DNA from: an uncultured Candidatus Saccharibacteria bacterium
GTDB lineage: Bacteria > Patescibacteriota > Minisyncoccia > Phycocordibacterales > UBA2100
Reading direction: 5' to 3'
Assembly (NCBI GenBank): GCA_964623775.1
Contig: CAZUVH010000001.1
Span: forward strand, 40,790-104,789
DNA: 64,000 nucleotides
Shown: positions 9,950 through 17,214 of the stretch, in pieces
Position numbering within the stretch: position 1 is the stretch's first letter
Layout: the number at the start of each line of letters is the position of its first letter
Position numbers and translations under genes: made by a program
The notes under the pieces: model-generated
Seen by the model: only the letters and a program-made list of their open reading frames with translations
Databases searched by the model: none
What the model was told of the DNA's origin: nothing

Positions 9950-10073
9950 TACGTGCTTTTGGGCTCAAAGTGTGGTAAAAGTTATCGATAAATCGATAAC
10001 TTTGCTTGGCTTGTGTCGCTCGGAAGCGAAAGTAAACTTTCTCTTCCCTCGCTATCCTCGCAAGATAAAAAAC

Positions 10074-11165
10074 ATGATGACCGAACACCACAATCACGTG
10101 CATGGCGCACAAAACGTCAAAGTGACGCGCAATACCGATACCTGGGAAGTTGAGCTCAAGGCGGAGATCTCCGCTGAAGCACTCGCAGGATATCGCACCG
10201 AGGCGCTCAAGGAGATTCAGAGCACCGCCAAACTCGACGGCTTCCGCCCCGGCAAGGCCCCGGCCGATCGCATCATTGCCGTCTACGGCGAAGCGGCGAT
10301 CATGCGCGAAGCTGCTGAGCACGCTGTGCAGCACGAATTGCCCGAACTCCTCGCCAAGGAGAAGCTCATGATTATCGAATCCCCCCGCGTGGAGATCGCA
10401 TCTCCAGAGGCAGGCAAGCCGCTCGCCTTTACCGCTCGCGCACCGCTCGCGCCCGAAGTCACGCTCCCCGATTACAAAAAAATCGCCTCCAAGCACAACG
10501 CCAAAAAAGAGGAAATCACTATTTCAGACAAGGAGCACCAGGATGCCCTCATCCACTTGCGACGCGAGCGCGCCCGTATCGACAAAGTAGAATCCGGTAC
10601 AGATGCGCAGAAGGCATCCGAAGAGTCTCGCGCGATGAAAGAGGATGAACTGCCGGCACTCGACGATGAATTTTCAAAATCAATCGGCTACGAGAGCGCT
10701 GCTCATTTTACCGACACCATCCGCGTGAACATGCGAGAGGAAAAGGCGCGGCAGGCGATCGAGAAGCGTCGCACCATGATCCTCGACGATCTCATCAAGG
10801 AATCCCGCATTTCGTATCCGGCGATCCTTCGCGAATACGAGCTCAACGAGATGGAGGGCCGCATGAAGGATGACCTCGAGCGCATGGGCACCACCTTTGA
10901 AGCATATTTGAATCAGACAAAGAAGACGCACGAGCAAATCCGCGCAGATTGGAAAGACGCTGCAGACAAGCGCGCCCGCATGCGCCTCATCCTCGCGGAA
11001 ATTTCCCGCGCCGAAAAGATCGAGCCGAGCCGCGAAATGATTGATCAAGAAGTCGCTCATGCCAAAGAGCACTACAAAAATGCTGACGAAGGCGTCTTGC
11101 GCACCCACATCCAGCACGCGATGAAAAACGAAGCCGTGCTCAAATTCCTCGAGGCGCAAGAATAA
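10074..11165 (+). CDS. tig: trigger factor (short form, apparently lacking the PPIase domain)
   Basis: The conserved ribosome-binding signature GFRPGKAP sits in the N-domain, and the C-terminal arm domain is present. About 360 aa from the MMTEHH start. The track ORF begins earlier, at 9972. Confidence 0.8.
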   Translation: MMTEHHNHVHGAQNVKVTRNTDTWEVELKAEISAEALAGYRTEALKEIQSTAKLDGFRPGKAPADRIIAVYGEAAIMREAAEHAVQHELPELLAKEKLMIIESPRVEIASPEAGKPLAFTARAPLAPEVTLPDYKKIASKHNAKKEEITISDKEHQDALIHLRRERARIDKVESGTDAQKASEESRAMKEDELPALDDEFSKSIGYESAAHFTDTIRVNMREEKARQAIEKRRTMILDDLIKESRISYPAILREYELNEMEGRMKDDLERMGTTFEAYLNQTKKTHEQIRADWKDAADKRARMRLILAEISRAEKIEPSREMIDQEVAHAKEHYKNADEGVLRTHIQHAMKNEAVLKFLEAQE

Positions 11166-11196
11166 ATTCAACGCCGCACGTCTCCCGTACCTATCT

Positions 11197-11240
11197 TAAC
11201 CGGTCGGTTAAGATAGGTACCGATTCCAAGTTTGCTATTT
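11197..11240 (+). terminator. long perfect inverted repeat gtacctatcttaacc-GGTC-ggttaagataggtac followed by a T-rich tract
   Basis: 15-bp perfect stem just after the tig stop. Likely the tig terminator, though it could also serve as a protein-binding palindrome. Confidence 0.55.
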
Positions 11241-11284
11241 ATTTAATATCGTTGTAGAGTATTGACCGGAAAGGATTCGGTCAC

Positions 11285-11455
11285 ATGAGTGAATCGCGTC
11301 GCACTGAGGTCATCGCACGTACGGAGACTATGAAACGAGCGCTCAAGCTCGATCAAAAGACGCTCGCGGAGCTGGGTAAATTGTCTCTCCTGGGGCAAAT
11401 GTGCTTTCTCGCACTCATGCACGAAATGCGAAACGATTCAGACACAATCCACTGA
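11285..11455 (+). CDS. small protein (56 aa) MSESRRTEVIARTETMKRALKLDQKTLAELGKL..., hypothetical
   Basis: Below the ORF-track size cutoff. AAAGGA lies 10 nt upstream. Immediately followed by a perfect terminator, gggctcccgatcgggagccc + TTTT, at 11463-11488. Confidence 0.3.
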   Translation: MSESRRTEVIARTETMKRALKLDQKTLAELGKLSLLGQMCFLALMHEMRNDSDTIH

Positions 11456-11462
11456 TGTTTAA

Positions 11463-11488
11463 GGGCTCCCGATCGGGAGCCCTTTTGA
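11463..11488 (+). terminator. intrinsic terminator gggctccc-GATC-gggagccc + TTTT
   Basis: Perfect 8-bp stem with a T-run. Confidence 0.55.
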
Positions 11489-11497
11489 TTTTGAAAA

Positions 11498-11818
11498 TCA
11501 AAGCTCTGGGGCGCGCAACCCCTTCTCTTTCATATCAAGGCGCTCGGCCATTCCAGTCAAAACCGCTTCTTCAATTGTTTTATTCATATCTTCAGGCGAA
11601 ATATCCTCCGATTGCTTGAGTTTGCGATGCAGCCGATTCGCAACCAGATTGGATATGAGCCCAATCTCTTTATCATTCAAAGACTCGCCCTCTAAGAGAA
11701 GTCCCGAGGTATCAATAAATTGCTTTACCTGGCCCTCCATAGCTTGCATCTTTGCGGGATTCGTCGCGCGTAACTCCATCGCGTAATTTGCATGCTCTCC
11801 CTCCAAATGTTCGTTCAT
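11498..11818 (-). CDS. hypothetical protein (~106 aa, MNEHLEGEHANYAMELRATNPAK...)
   Basis: C-terminal two-fifths of track ORF 11498..12199. The Arg-rich N-terminal part of that ORF overlaps the better-supported small gene 11875..12081 and is probably not coding. Confidence 0.35.
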   Translation of the reverse strand: MNEHLEGEHANYAMELRATNPAKMQAMEGQVKQFIDTSGLLLEGESLNDKEIGLISNLVANRLHRKLKQSEDISPEDMNKTIEEAVLTGMAERLDMKEKGLRAPEL

Positions 11819-11874
11819 ATATTCGAGATTTGCTTGTATTGGGATAATAGTACTCCAATCAATCCAAAAGAAAA

Positions 11875-12081
11875 CTACCCCTTGGATTGCTCCTCGGAGT
11901 AGTGGGTGGGACCCATGTCGTCGACATAGTCGCCCGACATGGAATCGCCGTAGTAGGCGGTGTCGTCGAGCCCGCGCATCTCGTCGGCGCATCCGAGATA
12001 GTAGAGCACCGAAGCGAGTAGCGCCGCCGAAGTGACGACGCCGAAGACGAAACCGCCCGAAAAGATCAGAAACTTTTTCAT
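11875..12081 (-). CDS. small secreted/lipoprotein-like protein (68 aa), cassette A of a four-gene array
   Basis: GGAGG ribosome-binding site 5 nt upstream. N-terminal signal-like MKKFLIFSGGFVFGVVTSAALLASVLYYLGC. Preceded by conserved leader element A. Confidence 0.5.
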   Translation of the reverse strand: MKKFLIFSGGFVFGVVTSAALLASVLYYLGCADEMRGLDDTAYYGDSMSGDYVDDMGPTHYSEEQSKG

Positions 12082-12094
12082 GCGCCCCTCCAGG

Positions 12095-12133
12095 CTCTAT
12101 CAACCCACGAACCATTTCATGAGCTGAATAAAG
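12095..12133 (-). promoter_or_regulatory. conserved ~38-bp upstream element, copy A (minus-strand sense CTTTATTCAGCTCATGAAATGGTTCGTGGGTTGATAGAG)
   Basis: One of four near-identical copies (A 12095-12133, B ~12999-13035, C 13481-13519, D 13743-13779). Each ends 10-22 nt upstream of a minus-strand start codon. Each is preceded (on the RNA) by a hairpin that overlaps the stop of the previous gene. Confidence 0.6.
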
Positions 12134-12153
12134 GGGCGGATAGATATCCGCCC
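12133..12153 (-). terminator. hairpin ggggcggata-ga-tatccgcccc adjoining leader copy A
   Basis: Perfect stem seen in the sequence, at the end of the upstream minus-strand unit. Confidence 0.45.
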
Positions 12154-12422
12154 TAGTAGTCGTAGCAGGAGCGGCAATGTTGTCGCTCGGCCCGCGCAAT
12201 TATCTTGCGGTTATCGCGCGGAATGCGCCGTAAAGGTTTCCCTTTGACCTGCTTAATTCGTCCGCCACCGCCATACAGGCCATAGCGCAACGGCACGTCA
12301 TACAGACCGCCGCGGTGGCGGACTTGGTGAGAGCAATAATGCGCCATAGTTCCCCCTGTGTTGGCGATTACGTAAAACGAAGTTGCGGCTGCGTGATCCT
12401 GTTTTGTAGCGGCTATCAACAC
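12153..12422 (-). CDS. questionable small basic ORF (..RYGLYGGGGRIKQVKGKPLRRIPRDNRKIIARAERQHCRSCYDY)
   Basis: Track ORF only. Low-complexity and basic. Included because it occupies the gap between cassettes A and B. It may instead be non-coding. Confidence 0.15.
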   Translation of the reverse strand: MLIAATKQDHAAATSFYVIANTGGTMAHYCSHQVRHRGGLYDVPLRYGLYGGGGRIKQVKGKPLRRIPRDNRKIIARAERQHCRSCYDY

Positions 12423-12715
12423 CGCACATGCGCGATTCCTCGCGCATTTTCCTGGGACGAACCCCGGAAGTAGACAGGATCACGCAGTTTGTCCGCTTAC
12501 ATTGCTCGTCGACTTTGAGCAACGCTGTAACCCTCGGCAAAGGTCACAGTAGTTTTGGAAGAGTGCACGGTGATTTTTTCAGCACATGTGTTGATGCGCC
12601 GCAGTGTCCTTTGATTGCACATCCTGTAAGTACAGGGCACAAAGTCTTTGCCTGCCTTAGCAAAGCTGGACACGGGGAGGAGAAGCACCCCAAACACTCC
12701 ATCACCATTCTCTGC

Positions 12716-12976
12716 CTACGAGGAACTATCGGTCCCCGGAACTGGTTGCGCATTGCCGTGCGCTATCTGTAAAAGAACGATCTCTGTTAGCTCACGAAAG
12801 ATTCCCGAGCTAAATAGAGTCCTCGAAGATTCGTCGCCGAGTTTCTTCGAAGAGTTTTTCCCTTTGCGGGAATAGCGCTTTTTGTTGAGCACCACGCGGT
12901 GGTGGTAGCGGTTGTCAGCGAGCATACGCGCCGCCTCACTGCGGGGTTTCGGAAGCTGGATGACAATCTGCTTCAT
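12716..12976 (-). CDS. small basic protein (MKQIVIQLPKPRSEAARMLADNRYHHRVVLNKKRYSRKGK...), cassette B
   Basis: ATG at 12976 sits 22 nt after leader copy B, with an AGGAAA ribosome-binding site. The track ORF 12716..13003 starts slightly upstream. The C-terminal half is of doubtful coding quality. Confidence 0.35.
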   Translation of the reverse strand: MKQIVIQLPKPRSEAARMLADNRYHHRVVLNKKRYSRKGKNSSKKLGDESSRTLFSSGIFRELTEIVLLQIAHGNAQPVPGTDSSS

Positions 12977-12998
12977 GTGTTTTCCTTTCAAACAAAAT

Positions 12999-13035
12999 CT
13001 CAATCAGCCAACGACCATTCGCGGACTGAATAAAG
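12999..13035 (-). promoter_or_regulatory. conserved upstream element copy B (CTTTATTCAGTCCGCGAATGGTCGTTGGCTGATTGAG)
   Basis: See copy A. Copies B and D share the variant ..GCGAATGGTCGT.. Confidence 0.55.
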
Positions 13036-13468
13036 CGGGCGACGATGTGTCACCCATAGGAACTTCAACGAAGCCGGCGTGCCGGAACACCTGGACCTTT
13101 TTCACGGACCCGTCTTTCTGCATTTCATCCACGCTTTCGCGCTTCGAGAATGCATACAGAATTTTGATGTTGCGCGCACGGAGTGCGGCTTCGAGCGGCG
13201 CCATGAAGAAGGGCGCGCCGCCGATCATCACGGTGTCGTACTTGTCATACGCTACCATCTGCGCCAGCGCTTCTGCCTTTGCACGCAGCTCTTTTGCGAT
13301 GGGCAATTGCTCGAATGTGATGAGCGCTTGCACCAGCTCTTTGTCGGCCGGCTCCACTACACCAGCTGCAATTTGGTCCGCGGTCGCCACGTGCTGCGTG
13401 AGGTTGAGGATTTTCATCCGCTTGCCCTTTCTTTCGATTACTGATTCGATTGCGCCTTCAGATTTCAT
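13004..13468 (-). CDS. hypothetical protein (154 aa), cassette C
   Basis: ATG at 13468 sits 12 nt after leader copy C (GGGGCGGG ribosome-binding site). Motif MKILNLTQHVATADQIAAGVVEP. Probably a soluble alpha/beta protein. No confident family. Confidence 0.5.
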   Translation of the reverse strand: MKSEGAIESVIERKGKRMKILNLTQHVATADQIAAGVVEPADKELVQALITFEQLPIAKELRAKAEALAQMVAYDKYDTVMIGGAPFFMAPLEAALRARNIKILYAFSKRESVDEMQKDGSVKKVQVFRHAGFVEVPMGDTSSPALFSPRMVVG

Positions 13469-13480
13469 TTCCCGCCCCTA

Positions 13481-13519
13481 CTCTATCAACTCACGAGCCA
13501 TTTCATGAGCTGAATAAAG
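13481..13519 (-). promoter_or_regulatory. conserved upstream element copy C (CTTTATTCAGCTCATGAAATGGCTCGTGAGTTGATAGAG)
   Basis: Differs from copy A at 2 of 39 positions. Followed on the plus strand by the hairpin agatcgag-N15-ctcgatct at 13519-13549, which overlaps the stop of cassette D. Confidence 0.6.
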
Positions 13520-13548
13520 AGATCGAGAAACGCATGCGCCCCTCGATC

Positions 13549-13731
13549 TTAATGATTGGCCGGATGTTCGACGATGTAATCGATGATCGCCCACTGATCG
13601 ACCCGGCCCCAGTCCTTGCGGTCTTCGACCGCCTTCGCGTATCCCGCATATGCACGCGGATTCCGCTTGCGGAGATCCTTGACGAACGCGAGCTCGTCCT
13701 TGGTCTCCCAATAAACCTTCTGCTCGACCAT
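13549..13731 (-). CDS. small protein (60 aa, MVEQKVYWETKDELAFVKDLRKRNPRAYAGYAKAVEDRKDWGRVDQWAIIDYIVEHPANH), cassette D
   Basis: ATG sits 10 nt after leader copy D, with a GAGG ribosome-binding site. Stop overlaps the downstream hairpin. Confidence 0.45.
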   Translation of the reverse strand: MVEQKVYWETKDELAFVKDLRKRNPRAYAGYAKAVEDRKDWGRVDQWAIIDYIVEHPANH

Positions 13732-13742
13732 GACGGACCTCC

Positions 13743-13779
13743 TCTATCAACTCACGACCATTCGCAAGCTGAATAAAGT
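13743..13779 (-). promoter_or_regulatory. conserved upstream element copy D (CTTTATTCAGCTTGCGAATGGTCGTGAGTTGATAGAG)
   Basis: Preceded at 13779-13806 by the hairpin gtgcggag-N12-ctccgcac. Confidence 0.55.
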
Positions 13780-14790
13780 GCGGAGTATTTTTTGAGCCTC
13801 CGCACACTCAAGTTTTTTTCGAGAACCACTCGGCCATGCTTTTACACCGGAGCTTTTCATGTCTACTCTTTCGGCTCATCGCCGCTGTAGATCATTCAAA
13901 CCGGCAACCTCGGTCGAGGTGATTTCCCTGAAGTTGCGCTACCGACGCAGAGCTTCTCGAGCGTCTTTTAGAGTACGGTAGACGACACCGTTAATTACGT
14001 AATAGGTCATGAAGACACCCACCACGTCGCCGACATTCACGTCGACTTCCTCGCTCCCCCAGCCGCGAGGCCTGACTGTGCCACCAAAGCAGCAAAAAAT
14101 TGCAGGAGTTGTGCGTGGTTAGTGCACTTTTATTTAGTGGGACCAACCTCCCACTGAACCGGCTACTCCAAGCCGCACCTCTCCACGACCGGTCGCGAAG
14201 AGGATTACGATGAGGCCATCGTTTTACCGTGACCCCTCCTCCCTCACCTTACGGCGAAGGCCCTCTCAGCAGTCGTTCGCTGCTGCCTGAGCACCCTCAT
14301 CTTGGGGTGGCCAGGTACATTCTTGGAATCCTTTCAGATCCCTTCGCCCGACACCAGGTGCGATTGATCACCAAATAGTTATGATTGCGCTATAAAGCGC
14401 GTAAATTATTAATTGGTGATGTCAGCTGTTGATGTCGGGGCAAGGAATTACGAGTTTGCCCTGCGCCCGCCACCCCACCATGCTTTAAATGGGGTGGGAG
14501 GCGCAGGGCACCTCGCCGTGCCCGTCATCGCTTTCGCGATGGAGGGCTTTTTTGGACCATACAGCCTATTCCGAGGCCGTATGGGTTGAATACCTTTGAT
14601 TGGCTATGGGGTGTGTCAAAGATCAGAAGTCAGCTCGTACTGACAGCGGGAGTATACACATTTGAATCGATTTGTCAAGTATTTGTGACACTTTACATTC
14701 TATACCCAAAAAAGCTCTATAAATGAGCGGTTTGTAAGGCTTTGATTAGTCAGTCCTGTATGTCATTTTTGCCTTGTAAAATAACCACAT

Positions 14791-14819
14791 TTGACAACCT
14801 TCAGTGACCGGTATATAAT
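14791..14819 (+). promoter_or_regulatory. perfect consensus sigma70-type promoter TTGACA-N17-TATAAT
   Basis: ttgaca at 14791-14796 and tataat at 14814-14819 with a 17-nt spacer, read directly from the sequence. No ORF of 60 aa or more lies downstream. The transcript would start near 14826. Confidence 0.6.
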
Positions 14820-14825
14820 GTCCAT

Positions 14826-15075
14826 AGTGCTGAAGGAGGCACTCGGGTACTTCCCGGGCCCGCAACTTCGGGTTTCATGTGCAAAAGGGAGAATCTCGTG
14901 ATTCTCACACGTGGTGACGGCGGCGGCGCATAACCGACTGTCGTGAAAAGAGATGGAAAGTGATGTGTGAAGTTTGAGTCCGGCATCATTTCGGGTTCGG
15001 GATTGTCACATGTCCTTTCCCCAACAGGGCGGCTCTGCGAGAAGCAGAGCCGCCCACAACTTTATCTTTTTTGCT
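14826..15075 (+). ncRNA. candidate small RNA (or tiny-peptide transcript), unassigned
   Basis: ~240-nt unit bounded by the consensus promoter and the intrinsic terminator gggcggctctgc-gaga-gcagagccgccc + T-run at 15028-15075. Contains AAGGAGG with no usable start after it. Only 11-18-codon ORFs (MILTRGDGGGA, MCKRENLVILTRGDGGGA) are present. Several internal GC hairpins. Does not match RNase P, tmRNA, SRP or 5S rRNA signatures by eye. Confidence 0.3.
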
Positions 15076-15856
15076 CGAACTGACCCATTTCCCACAGTAA
15101 AGAGAACAACGTGCTAACACTTTGCGTTATTTCCTTACTTTCTATAGCAACGCCGAACACTTTCCCCTGTAATGCCATAATGGCGACTGTGTTGTTGTAA
15201 ATATAAATATCCGAATGTATCGGCATTCGATCATAGGGGATGAAACGACGCTCTGTAAATTCCACAATGTCGTCGCCGGAAAACGGACCATCCTTGCGCG
15301 TGTAAATAGCTTTGAGGTAAATCCCTTTCGCAGAACGTTTTTGAGCGTGGTCATATCGCTCCTTCTCGGAGTACACATTTGCGAGTGCGTCATGACAATA
15401 AATAAATTTTAATTCAGTGCCACTCGGCAGTGCGAGCAAGCTGTCTCGCATTCGTGCGACACCTTCTTTCCCATCAAAGAATCGTACGATAGGACGCTCG
15501 CCAGCTCCCTCAAACTTTTTTGTGAGTTCGGGAAGGATGGTGGCGAGGTCATTTTCCCTCGATTCAAATTCTCTTTTTTTCGCGTCGAAAATTTTCTTAA
15601 GCAATTCTGGTGATTCGGGGGCAAACATCGTCTTCTTCCCTTCTTCGTAGGTGCTCATGAGGCCCATTTTCATGAGCGACTCGAGCTGCACATAGGTAGT
15701 AGGGCGTTTGATCTTTGCATGCTTCGCGAGCTGATCAGCAGTAGCTTGGCCGATCTCGAGAGCTGCGAGATACACACGCGCTTCTTTTTCCGAGAGACCA
15801 AGATCTTGGAGTTCTTTTAACATCTTCGTATTGTATTGCACAAATGCCTGTATCAA
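15062..15856 (-). CDS. TrmB-family transcriptional regulator (paralog 1)
   Basis: N-terminal wHTH LGLSEKEARVYLAALEIGQATADQLAKHAKIKRPTTYVQLESLMKMGL plus a TrmB-type C-domain. The true start may be the internal Met near 15823. Confidence 0.75.
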   Translation of the reverse strand: MIQAFVQYNTKMLKELQDLGLSEKEARVYLAALEIGQATADQLAKHAKIKRPTTYVQLESLMKMGLMSTYEEGKKTMFAPESPELLKKIFDAKKREFESRENDLATILPELTKKFEGAGERPIVRFFDGKEGVARMRDSLLALPSGTELKFIYCHDALANVYSEKERYDHAQKRSAKGIYLKAIYTRKDGPFSGDDIVEFTERRFIPYDRMPIHSDIYIYNNTVAIMALQGKVFGVAIESKEITQSVSTLFSLLWEMGQFEQKR

Positions 15857-15934
15857 AAATGAATGCTGTTAAAAATTAATTTTAAAAGATTCGGAGGCAC
15901 CACTTTCGTGATACCTCCGTTTGTTGCAACGCGC

Positions 15935-16120
15935 CTACGCGCCGCCACCGTTCTTCTTGCGCGACCTGGCGGCCTTGCTGCCGACGCCGGCGACCGGCGC
16001 GCCGCGCTGGGGCAGGGTCGACTCCTTCTTTCCCTTGCGCCGCTGACGGATAAACCGCTTCGCGGCATTGTTGGAGCACTTGCGCGCGTCCGCCACGAGG
16101 GCGATCGTCTTCGAGTCCAT
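15935..16120 (-). CDS. small basic protein (61 aa, MDSKTIALVADARKCSNNAAKRFIRQRRKGKK...)
   Basis: GGGAGA ribosome-binding site 6 nt upstream of the ATG at 16120. Followed by the hairpin GGAGGUAUCAC-GAAA-GUGGUGCCUCC with a U-tract on the minus strand. Function unknown. Confidence 0.45.
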   Translation of the reverse strand: MDSKTIALVADARKCSNNAAKRFIRQRRKGKKESTLPQRGAPVAGVGSKAARSRKKNGGGA

Positions 16121-16227
16121 GTCAAATCTCCCATTGATGCACCGATCTTGATGCTGGCGAGAGTTTAGCACACTTAAATGCTTTTGTCAAGATCTATTTC
16201 TTGGCTCTATCGCTCGCTTTTTTTGGC

Positions 16228-16614
16228 TTAGTGGAGCGTCTCGTCCTGGTCACGATACGCATCGATTTCAAACCGCTTCACGATATCCTGCGCCAGCATT
16301 TTTAATGTTGCCTCATCATTGAGCGAGATTTTTTCCGGATCGAGGTCTTTCTCTCTCAAAATTTCATGAAAGTAGTGCGCCGGGACATGCTTATCGTCGT
16401 CGCCGGCACCCCATTCCATCATCGCATCTGAATGCTTATAACCTTCTTTTGTCCCGCCCTGACGTTGGATATTGAAAACGATCTCTGCGATCCTGCCTTG
16501 CAACAACATCTCGCGTTTGTATTTTTGCTTATCGAATCCTCCTTCAAATCCCATAGATAACAGTGTATCAGATGTGAAGAAAAATTTGGCCCTCATTGTC
16601 GATCTCTGATACAC
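16228..16614 (-). CDS. hypothetical protein (128 aa)
   Basis: Track ORF with plausible codon usage. No family recognised. Confidence 0.45.
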
Positions 16615-16623
16615 TCTTTTTAT

Positions 16624-17214
16624 ATGCAGAACATCAAATCCCAGCTCGTACCAATGGTCGTAGAGAAAACTTCCTTCGGCGAACGCGCATACGATATCTA
16701 TTCGCGACTTCTCAAAGAGCGCATCGTCTTTTTGGGCGGCCCGATCGACAATGAGGTGGCCAATCTCGTCGTCGCACAGCTCCTCTTCCTCGCATCAGAG
16801 GACCCAAAGAAAGACATCTCTTTCTATATCAACTCCCCCGGAGGCATGGTCACGGCCGGCCTTGCGATCCTCGACACCATGAATCATATCCAGCCCAATG
16901 TATCGACCGTCTGTGTGGGCATGGCCGCCTCGATGGGCGCCGTCCTCCTTTCGGCTGGTCAAAAGGGTAAGCGTTTTGCGCTCCCCAATGCCGAGGTGAT
17001 GATCCACCAGCCCTCAGGAGGTGCCGAGGGTATGGCTGCGGATATCGAGATCACAGCCAAGCAAATCCTCAAACTGCGCCAGCGTCTCAATATGATTTTG
17101 GCCAAAAATACCGGCCAAAAGCTCGAAAAAATCGAAAAAGACGTCGATCGCGACTTCTTTATGGATGCCCCGGAGGCCCTCAAGTACGGCATCATCGACA
17201 AGGTTCTCGGGTAG
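16624..17214 (+). CDS. clpP: ATP-dependent Clp protease proteolytic subunit ClpP
   Basis: Conserved catalytic-Ser (SMGA), His and Asp blocks of ClpP. 196 aa. Confidence 0.9.

Follow-up and report, generated by a model that had tools for sequence, protein, structure and literature searches.

The 64,000-nt stretch of contig CAZUVH010000001.1 analysed here (the window) contains about one kilobase of DNA that lacks any long open reading frame (ORF) and lies between an array of small genes and a gene for a TrmB-family regulator. Two back-to-back promoters, ~110 bp apart, are predicted within and beside it: one would drive a structured leader RNA leftward into the small-gene array, the other a short RNA with an 11-codon ORF rightward towards trmB (Table 1). 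A six-frame check of 13808-14800 (993 bp) turned up no ORF that reaches 60 aa, and the runner-up ORF-free gap in the window measures 256 bp, in agreement with an earlier note on this DNA that had singled the gap out as the longest of the window. That note had drawn the ORF-free range as 13807-15075, which is slightly too wide because a minus-strand ORF of 62 aa (14801-14989) overlaps its right end; this ORF, most likely spurious, runs antisense to the RNA with the conserved micro-ORF described below. When 13808-14800 was shuffled with its dinucleotides preserved, 2 of 300 shuffles remained fully ORF-free. Stop codons are denser there than in the whole window (4.2% vs 2.9%, all frames), and the G+C content is coding-like. 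As set out below, the evidence supports a stretch that is conserved and strongly structured, is not long-coding and is linked functionally to the small-gene array.

Table 1. Features of the control region and its neighbours, with positions in the window (SD, Shine-Dalgarno sequence)
Feature	Position	Strand	Description
trmB-family regulator gene	15062-15823	-	253 aa from ATG at 15823; stop codon 15062-15064; Pfam TrmB E = 2e-14
Plus promoter TTGACA-N17-TATAAT	14791-14819	+	12/12 in scan; predicted start near 14826
Short plus transcript, ~240 nt	14826-15072	+	5' hairpin, two conserved hairpins, micro-ORF, further hairpins, terminator
5'-terminal hairpin	14827-14843	+	variable among relatives
Hairpins CUCGGG..CCCGGG and GCCCG..CGGGU	14842-14874	+	conserved in sequence
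Micro-ORF GTG..TAA, MILTRGDGGGA (11 aa)	14898-14933	+	SD GGGAG at 14887-14891; G-D-G codons 14913-14921
Terminator hairpin GGGCGGCUCUGC-GAGAA-GCAGAGCCGCCC	15027-15055	+	12 bp, GC-rich; T-rich run 15061-15072 overlaps trmB stop 15062-15064
Minus promoter TTGACA-N16-TATACT	14678 to 14651	-	11/12 in scan; predicted start near 14644
Operator-like palindrome O1, TGTCAAGTATTTGTGACA	14673-14690	.	overlaps minus-promoter -35 box; not transcribed; same position and geometry in relatives
Operator-like palindrome O2, AGTCAGCTCGTACTGACA	14628-14645	.	at minus transcript start; centre 45 bp from O1
Structured leader RNA, ~550 nt	14644 to ~14095	-	conserved blocks, covariation, fold z = -10.7; 5' to 3': 5' hairpin, UUUGACA box, YGGAAU-loop hairpin (~14573-14547), hairpin 1 (14510-14457), S1-S3 core, 3' domain
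Switch core	14324-14449	-	best-conserved letters form the three strands S1, S2 and S3
S1, AAUUCCUU	14449 to 14442	-	pairs with S2
P2, GCCCCGAC with GUCGGGC	14441 to 14434 with 14352 to 14346	-	predicted, and counted in the alignment
S2, GAAGGGAUC	14345 to 14337	-	purine-rich; pairs with S1 or S3
S3, GGAUUCC	14330 to 14324	-	near-copy of S1; pairs with S2
Leader 3' domain	within the leader, 3' of the core	-	CGAACGA-loop hairpin, CGUAAUCCUC box, further hairpins
Micro-ORF MTYYVINGVVYRTLKDAREALRR (23 aa; MTYYVINGVVY...)	14010 to 13939	-	ATG..TAG; first frame after the leader; SD-like GGUGGGUG; ~630 nt from start
Hairpin GUGCGGAG..CUCCGCAC, then inter-cassette motif CUUUAUUCAG-hairpin-UUGAUAGAGGAGG	13808 to 13742	-	boundary to small-gene array
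60-aa gene	13731 to 13549	-	immediately after the hairpin and motif at 13742-13808
Inter-cassette motif	12095-12133, 12999-13035, 13481-13519, 13742-13778	-	window copies

Conservation of the region among relatives

Relatives of the TrmB protein of the window are found in metagenome-assembled genomes of Paceibacterota, Kaiserbacteria and Adlerbacteria, which puts the window in this lineage; the loci compared with the window carry L-numbers below (L001, L005 and so on). Identity to the TrmB of the window is only 53-68%, yet the non-coding DNA beyond trmB aligns in conserved blocks split by variable insertions. A degenerate pattern made from the most conserved block matched once each in nine relatives and in the window, and 91 stretches were collected from metagenome contigs; a profile of the promoter region told about 25 distinct true relatives apart from chance matches. 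The region is present in all 13 distinct loci fetched via TrmB alone, where public gene calls leave 700-960 bp blank beyond trmB, and it accompanies all four further TrmB homologues fetched without using the RNA (eight loci, four distinct). In every oriented relative with enough room (30 of 30, about 25 distinct sequences), a trmB-family gene lies convergent to the plus promoter, 200-350 nt past it, and this synteny persists where TrmB identity drops to 30-34%. As to the protein itself, a sequence search of the PDB matched the N-terminal winged helix only, to TrmBL2, and no Pfam family covers its C-terminal 170 residues.

A predicted structured leader RNA on the minus strand

As judged from the sequence, the main structured RNA is the 5' leader of the small-gene array, on the minus strand. 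It is assigned to this strand because the minus promoter is conserved, because many of its pairs are U-G (A-C on the other strand), and because a covariance model, R1, built from the commoner clade of leaders (clade B), scores its members at 83-131 bits forward and at 13-22 bits on the reverse strand. The same three observations speak against a structured RNA read from the plus strand. Thus, where the earlier note had suggested one or more uncharacterised structured RNAs, the conserved structure outside Rfam and its tie to the small-gene array stand, but the main RNA appears to be a minus-strand leader rather than a free-standing plus-strand RNA gene. R1 additionally finds L101 (44 bits), fails to match the leader of the window and finds no second copy in the 64 kb; the interior domain of the window's leader is therefore a variant.

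The leader has a minimum free energy (MFE) of -247.8 kcal/mol, against -177.6 +/- 6.6 kcal/mol for shuffled sequences. Comparative folding supports hairpin 1, and covariation was counted in the core of both clades, on alignments of 7-10 distinct sequences that are related by descent and that also gave the structures. With this limit, the core of the window's clade has 25 pairs, 92.4% paired; its compensatory cells number 20, where shuffles give 8.4 (0 of 500 reach the observed number), and slid controls give 1-4 compensatory pairs. Under the same limit, the core of clade B has 27 pairs and 94.8% of its cells are paired; 13 of the pairs are compensatory, where shuffles give 4.0 +/- 1.5 (again 0 of 500) and slid controls 2-7. 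In the 3' domain, which includes the conserved CGAACGA-loop hairpin, 22 of 44 predicted pairs show compensatory change. Leader length ranges across relatives from ~180 nt (L014 and L017, where an SD and ATG follow at once) to ~600 nt, and the switch core is the only universal part. A covariation-supported structured domain, as a riboswitch would generically have, is therefore found in a 5' leader behind a conserved promoter.

The hairpins named in the earlier note are present, as seen in the sequence, in a consensus scan and in a search for inverted repeats. The latter gives an inverted repeat at 14457-14477 / 14490-14510 (21-nt arms, 90% complementarity), and the scan lists the catcgc-tttc-gcgatg hairpin with its T-run as a plus-strand terminator-like element at 14525-14547. 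This hairpin and its TTTTTT (14525-14556) have no plus-strand gene upstream and are not conserved in relatives; seen on the transcribed minus strand, they form an A-run followed by a hairpin. Separately, some 130-300 nt into the leader of L013, a stretch of ~85 nt is tandemly duplicated (CGAGCCGTCGCCGAGATCTTCTTGACGGTACTCCGTCTTAGAAGATCCAAGTGCGGTCGCGAAG, twice); the otherwise near-identical L004 lacks this duplication.

Mutually exclusive pairings in the proposed switch core

The strand S2 can pair in two ways. The helix S1:S2 (P1), stacked on P2, closes a domain of ~110 nt, and S2:S3 forms a local hairpin. Of 22 lineages, 20 have this hairpin; it shows A-U/G-C and C-G/U-A exchanges at two positions, and its upper stem varies freely. 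The three strands change jointly, as in the S1/S2/S3 sets GAUUCC/GGGAUC/GAUUCC, GGCCCC/GGGGUC/GGCCUC and AGCUCC/GGGGUU/AGCUCC, which is what two mutually exclusive pairings under selection predict. An upstream strand, S0, also pairs with S1 (for example GCGAAG/CUUCGC), giving a four-strand scheme. Because an automated three-strand scan of duplex energies was too noisy in this G+C-rich RNA to yield a statistic, tables of anchored hairpins were used instead.

Downstream of S2:S3, four to six of the next ten nucleotides are U in L014, L017, L095, L034 and L097, and in L014 and L017 the hairpin and its U-rich tail are followed directly by the SD and ATG of the first gene; L019/L105 have a different leader, also with a hairpin and U tract. 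Where such a U tract directly precedes the first gene, S2:S3 should terminate transcription there. It is on the competition between S1:S2 and S2:S3, together with the U tracts of some relatives, that we base our reading of the leader as a conditional attenuator of the small-gene array, which may be riboswitch-like or dependent on a factor. Two translational variants were considered and rejected: a leader-peptide attenuator of the trp/his type, since no conserved short ORF covers strand 1 (S0/S1), and an ORF begun after the SD-like S2 (GGGRUCGUAUG), since neither its start codon nor the length of its frame is conserved.

The downstream array and alternative roles for the leader

The ORF-free region had been described as abutting a cassette array of small genes, and indeed the leader heads this array on the same strand. 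The 23-codon ORF that follows it in the window has homologues of 23-24 aa, each preceded by an SD and placed 520-640 nt from the start site: MTYYIVDGIVFRSRAEAVAYKTR (L043/L074), MVYYIINGIVFRSRAEAIAYKTSK (L101) and MTYYVVNGVVYTCPVSARQAKSA (L022). Two more tiny ORFs, MIYSGDEPKE (10 aa) and MSRKSRHEKLRCKSMAEWFSKKT (23 aa), lie on the minus strand within 13808-13938 and have no comparator sequence. In most relatives the first gene belongs to a family of 67-72 aa (MCHATIVATADGHVRGV..WTEGYKPLKCPRK..), which is absent from the whole 64-kb window, and the gene content of the array varies between relatives. Searches of Pfam, PHROGs and NCBIfam assigned no function, and no Pfam family, to the small proteins of the array; a 154-aa protein (13004-13468, minus strand) has a weak match to Csx20 (NCBIfam E = 3e-7, 30.8 bits against a cut-off of 70), and a small protein in the L097 and L014 arrays (MNYLTNAFSLNM...) belongs to the phage family phrog_5063 (E = 2e-19). 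Since the genes under control have no annotated function, they suggest no ligand.

Each small gene has an inter-cassette motif of 36-45 nt, UYUAUUCAG-[7-bp hairpin]-YUGAUWGAG, shortly before its SD; the motif occurs also in L008, L010, L014, L017, L019, L083, L095, L097, L100, L105 and L109. Its hairpin arms covary (CUCAUGA/UCGUGAG, CCCGGGA/UCCUUGG, CUUACGA/UCGCGAG), Rfam has no match to it, and in the window a terminator-like hairpin precedes every copy. The attC sites of integrons have inverted cores (R''/L''-L'/R'; RYYYAAC ... GTTRRRY) after each cassette and an adjacent intI/attI. An attC reading of the repeat was rejected: its GTTGATA is unlike GTTRRRY, and the motif lies upstream of the gene, beside the SD. 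No integrase gene flanks the array among the ORFs of the window. A promoter reading was rejected by inspection, as the -35/-10 spacing is unacceptable.

This arrangement bears on a first alternative to conditional attenuation, namely that the minus RNA is a processive antitermination element like the put RNA of phage HK022 or EAR, letting polymerase read through the hairpin-plus-UUUAUU signals between the small genes with no conditional on/off. Each cassette boundary does carry a terminator-like hairpin and CUUUAUUCAG, yet a single strong conserved promoter is seen upstream of the whole array; the element sits directly after that promoter, and S2:S3 is no terminator in the window's clade. We nonetheless consider this reading unlikely, because the leader is far larger and more complex than put RNA and has no Rfam match to EAR or others, and because the co-varying, exclusive S1:S2 and S2:S3 pairings and the U tracts fit a conditional switch and are not needed by a constitutive antiterminator.

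A second alternative is that the minus RNA is a stable, free-standing structured RNA that acts in trans as a scaffold, sponge or ribozyme and is co-transcribed with, or processed from, the operon. Its size (~550 nt, 8-10 helices) and the depth of its fold would suit such a role, as would the loop and junction sequences YGGAAU, CGAACGA and CGUAAUCCUC, which are kept across a class-level clade. It is, however, rather improbable for an RNA that always occupies the 5'-leader position on the strand of the array, has no terminator or conserved 3' end before the downstream genes, and varies so widely in length, with the switch core as its one universal part. Conditional attenuation of the array is thus the role that we prefer for the leader.

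Two observations concern the module as a whole. In the window and in L103, the two loci in which both flanks are visible, the small-gene array, leader, micro-ORF RNA and trmB are inserted between tig and clpP (locus 9972-17214 in the window), two genes that are adjacent in many bacteria. Moreover, contigs end inside or beside the region in L001, L004, L007, L011, L014, L057, L071, L083 and L097 (L001 stops 32 bp past the trmB stop codon); strains may differ at the leader and array, or these may be hard to assemble.

The plus-strand unit and its micro-ORF

A promoter heading a short, terminator-bounded unit had been proposed for the plus strand, and the sequence layout in every relative agrees with this: promoter, hairpins, SD, short ORF, hairpins and terminator follow one another in more than 20 relatives. 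The predicted transcript folds with an MFE of -108.7 kcal/mol (z = -5.25 vs shuffles), and the motif CUCGGGUA..CCCGAGCCCG..UUCGGGYU occurs in 14 of the 29 plus units examined. At the 3' end, the terminator that had been called clean and shared with the trmB gene does have a strong 12-bp hairpin, but its T-rich run begins 5 nt past the stem and overlaps the trmB stop codon, which keeps it off the list of the consensus scan. In most relatives the corresponding place has a canonical terminator of hairpin and U tract. The AAGGAGG at 14834-14840 indeed has no usable start codon behind it. It is not a ribosome-binding site: the 5'-terminal hairpin of the transcript holds it in its loop and 3' arm, and relatives have GAAGTCGGCAC or GAAGTAGGCAC in place of AGGAGG.

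Nor can the unit usefully be called ORF-less: of the 11-18-codon ORFs noted earlier, the 11-codon one is conserved with substitutions of the coding type. When the conservation of the peptide was checked, 19 of 23 tabulated lineages proved to have an SD-preceded ORF of 4-17 codons in which G-D-G stands 0-3 residues before the stop; three further relatives read GDGGGA, GDGGGV and GHGGGI (two with G-D-G, and one, L109, with G-H-G). Peptides in relatives include MSHRRGDGGGA, MRNLGDGGGG, MKNVLWLRTGDGG, MRDTHWRFGDGE, MKKLKLFGDGW, MTRIFSPGDGE and MENINFVAPGDG. The motif varies at third codon positions only (GGT/GGC/GGA/GGG, GAC/GAT, GGC/GGA/GGG/GGT), while the length of the ORF and its N-terminus vary freely, which is a coding signature. 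What is found, then, is a short SD-preceded ORF with conservation at the amino-acid level, as in leader and arrest peptides. The G-D-G codons are also paired: they supply the 5' arm of a hairpin, and its 3' arm, beyond the stop codon, covaries with them (GAU with AUCG in L017); a translating ribosome would therefore have to open or remodel the RNA.

The paired codons could also be taken to mean that the unit is a purely non-coding small RNA, in which RNA structure, or contact with a binding partner, preserves GGYGAYGG and the ORF is incidental. The covarying partner of the G-D-G arm fits this, as do the fold energy and the sequence conservation of the 5' hairpins CUCGGG/CCCGAG and GCCCG/CGGGU. 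We find it improbable, because every tabulated lineage except L019 (where a script found none) retains a start codon whose SD lies 5-10 nt upstream, with a frame that stays open to a stop 0-3 codons past the motif, and because changes within the motif are confined to third codon positions while the length and N-terminus of the ORF vary freely. Nor does trans-pairing help: complementarity of the plus RNA to the inter-cassette motifs, the trmB 5' region, the MTYY 5' region and the leader 5' end is not above shuffles (z from -0.06 to +0.99).

The only conserved downstream partner of the unit is the 3' end of trmB, which makes control of antisense read-through, or a micropeptide that acts with TrmB, the candidate roles. 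Our preferred interpretation of the plus unit, that of a translated micro-ORF, is accordingly worded with some latitude: it may be a sensor or device of the leader-peptide type, or else a gene for a micropeptide, with coupling in cis to trmB.

Promoters and operator-like palindromes

Both promoters have -35 and -10 hexamers of the sigma-70 type, as read from sequence, with spacings (17 nt in the plus and 16 nt in the minus promoter) inside the usual 16-18 nt, and both are conserved. The perfect consensus promoter noted earlier at 14791-14819 keeps its -35 TTGAC, an additional TGAC in the spacer and a TAnnnT -10 box in all aligned relatives. The minus promoter, which like the conservation of the 11-codon ORF was absent from the earlier note, has CTTGACAAA and a -10 box that change little or not at all among the relatives. 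TGACA/TGTCA pentamers are found at fixed positions and number about 5 per 240 bp, where 0.3-0.5 would be expected, and they make up two palindromes, O1 and O2, which are the only two matches to TGTCA-N8-TGACA (with at most one mismatch) in the 64 kb; a weaker third site lies near 14748-14765. The half-sites of O2, which also folds as the 5' hairpin of the minus RNA, covary (GTCAG/CTGAC vs GTCAA/TTGAC).

A second divergent promoter pair, in L005 (15050-16250), carries an O1-type TGTCA-N8-TGACA palindrome, and one of its promoters directly drives the gene for a 280-aa TrmB paralogue (Pfam E = 5e-12; 24% full-length identity to the TrmB of the window). The TrmB-family protein probably binds these palindromes as operators. 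On the other side of the L005 pair lies an RNA with a 6-codon ORF, MRGGSK.

Searches against known RNA families

At gathering score, Rfam 15 finds four tRNAs and nothing else in the whole window, and in E-value mode it gives no credible match in 13600-15300, where no family reaches E = 0.001. No RNase P covariance model reaches its gathering score in the window, and allowing E values as high as 10 over 13600-15300 yields none either. ARAGORN reports four tRNAs and no tmRNA in the window, and the Rfam tmRNA models agree with it; the models of EAR, OLE, GOLLD, ROOL, HEARO and raiA have no match either. Among relatives (18 loci at gathering score, 6 in E-value mode), Rfam finds tRNAs and scattered weak matches that do not recur. 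These searches, which include the Rfam/Infernal scan proposed earlier, show that no described family covers the region, and they bear out the impression by eye that it has no signature of RNase P, tmRNA, SRP RNA, 6S or 5S.

Several specific identities were accordingly rejected: bacterial RNase P RNA, for want of a covariance-model match and because the P4-like string lies opposite the promoter-defined RNA strand; tmRNA, which neither ARAGORN nor Rfam finds; and membership in any described Rfam family, as no match near gathering score recurs in relatives. The segment near 14140 that had been likened to the P4 strand of RNase P belongs to the strand opposite the transcribed one and falls within a covarying hairpin of the leader 3' domain. 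The idea of a pseudogene of a small gene was also rejected, since tblastn of the relatives' neighbouring small proteins against 13700-14700 gave frame-independent, DNA-level matches only, except at the MTYY micro-ORF. Although the source genome belongs to the Candidate Phyla Radiation (CPR), where housekeeping RNAs can diverge, and the stretch is ORF-free with a coding-like G+C content, a divergent housekeeping RNA (RNase P RNA, tmRNA, SRP RNA or 6S) or a decayed coding sequence is very hard to credit after these results, and the covariation speaks against decay. The region is neither a divergent housekeeping RNA nor junk.

A model for the control region

The observations are conservation, covariation, alternative complementarity, substitutions of the coding type and synteny, and we think it probable, with room for doubt, that the stretch is the control region of a conserved module of Paceibacteria (Parcubacteria, CPR) made up of trmB, two promoters with palindromes and two transcription units. 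Transcription, termination, switching, translation, the response to a ligand or factor and the binding of TrmB could fit together as follows. The leftward unit would run from the minus promoter through the multi-hairpin leader of ~550 nt to the 23-codon ORF and the small-gene array. Within the leader, S2 would pair either with the upstream S1, closing the ~110-nt domain, or with the downstream S3 in a local hairpin; if the long-range S1:S2 helix forms, the terminating or blocking S2:S3 hairpin would be excluded and the array expressed. The rightward unit would run from the plus promoter to give the ~240-nt RNA, which would end at the hairpin by the trmB stop codon and be translated to MILTRGDGGGA, and translation through the G-D-G codons would remodel their hairpin. 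The TrmB-family protein would bind the palindromes at the promoters.

A bolder version of this model is possible, though we hold it with considerable doubt. In it, the leader would be a new, CPR-specific RNA switch that senses a ligand or factor and gates the small-protein operon, and the G-D-G micro-ORF would be a new nascent-peptide or translation-coupled sensor that decides between a stop at the shared terminator and an antisense run into trmB. With TrmB at its operators, the module would then form a self-contained circuit of three layers (protein, RNA switch and micro-ORF) across Paceibacteria.

Several points weigh against these interpretations, besides the small and related alignments on which pairs were counted. 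All promoters, start sites, terminators and translated frames are predictions from sequence. In the leader, the window's clade has no U tract after S2:S3, and no convincing intrinsic terminator was found within the leader of the window. Inspection of the relatives' leader sequences gave no conserved SD-preceded ORF over S0/S1. The interior of the switch domain differs between clades, and the switch strands are its best-conserved part; in a typical small-molecule riboswitch the aptamer is the conserved part, the opposite of what is seen here, and the variable interior weakens the case for a ligand-binding riboswitch. In the plus unit, 4 of the 23 lineages lack the Asp (GGGG, TGGG, DGNGGG and GDPSG), L109 has GHG, and the antisense trmB is the only thing downstream of the micro-ORF that could be regulated. 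As for the palindromes, covariation alone cannot separate O2 as an operator from O2 as an RNA hairpin, the 64-kb scan finds no TGTCA-N8-TGACA palindrome upstream of the window's own trmB, and the suggested binding of TrmB is drawn from adjacency only.

In sum, the region appears to be a compact regulatory hub outside Rfam, built of elements whose length falls below what standard annotation records. Regulation has been little explored in CPR bacteria, and in the literature that we searched, no study deals with regulatory RNAs, leader peptides or TrmB regulators of Parcubacteria/Patescibacteria. The locus provides a covariation-supported RNA family that is absent from Rfam, a conserved micropeptide ORF that gene callers overlook and a candidate operator for a bacterial TrmB-family regulator, and it is a concrete, testable case of how reduced genomes control lineage-specific small proteins. 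More generally, "empty" intergenic kilobases in metagenome-assembled genomes can contain several functional elements below annotation thresholds.

Comparison with known systems

Leaders with competing antiterminator and terminator helices are exemplified by the pbuE adenine ON-switch and by the trp leader with its 1:2 / 2:3 / 3:4 scheme. The leader described here resembles them in being a 5' leader on the strand of the genes, in which the S1:S2 closing helix would compete with S2:S3, followed by a U tract in some lineages, and in having the additional S0:S1 option that makes four strands. It differs in belonging to no Rfam 15 class, in an interior that is variable between clades and not the most conserved part, in the lack of a leader peptide over strand 1 and, in the window's clade, of a U tract, and in running on for 250-300 nt beyond the switch.

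Other structured RNAs are more distant. Like the HK022 put RNA and EAR, the leader is a cis-acting structured RNA right after a promoter, heading a long multi-gene unit with internal terminator-like signals, but it is several-fold larger, matches them in neither sequence nor structure and has mutually exclusive helices. With OLE, GOLLD, ROOL, HEARO and raiA it shares a size of several hundred nucleotides, many covarying helices and restriction to one lineage; here, however, the RNA is a leader of variable length and not a discrete gene.

Among regulatory leader and arrest peptides (TnaC, ErmCL/ErmBL, the cat/cmlA leaders, SpeFL and SecM), the micro-ORF finds its likeness in a very short, SD-preceded ORF with conserved residues only beside the stop, a free N-terminus and a position over a hairpin that a ribosome would open. 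The plus unit differs in having no downstream gene on the same strand, its terminator facing the 3' end of trmB; G-D-G is no known arrest motif and its distance to the stop varies from 0 to 3 codons. Stalling would be a candidate role. The palindromes recall the operators of TrmB-family regulators, as a protein with a winged-helix TrmB domain is encoded beside promoters with palindromes over the -35 box and the start site. In Thermococcales the palindromic operator of the family is the TGM motif, TATCAC-N5-GTGATA; here the half-sites (TGTCA) and the spacing (N8) both differ, the host is a CPR bacterium, and TrmB is a candidate binder. In working principle, then, the leader appears to stand nearest to terminator/antiterminator riboswitches and attenuators, the micro-ORF to leader and arrest peptides, and the palindromes to TrmB-family operators.

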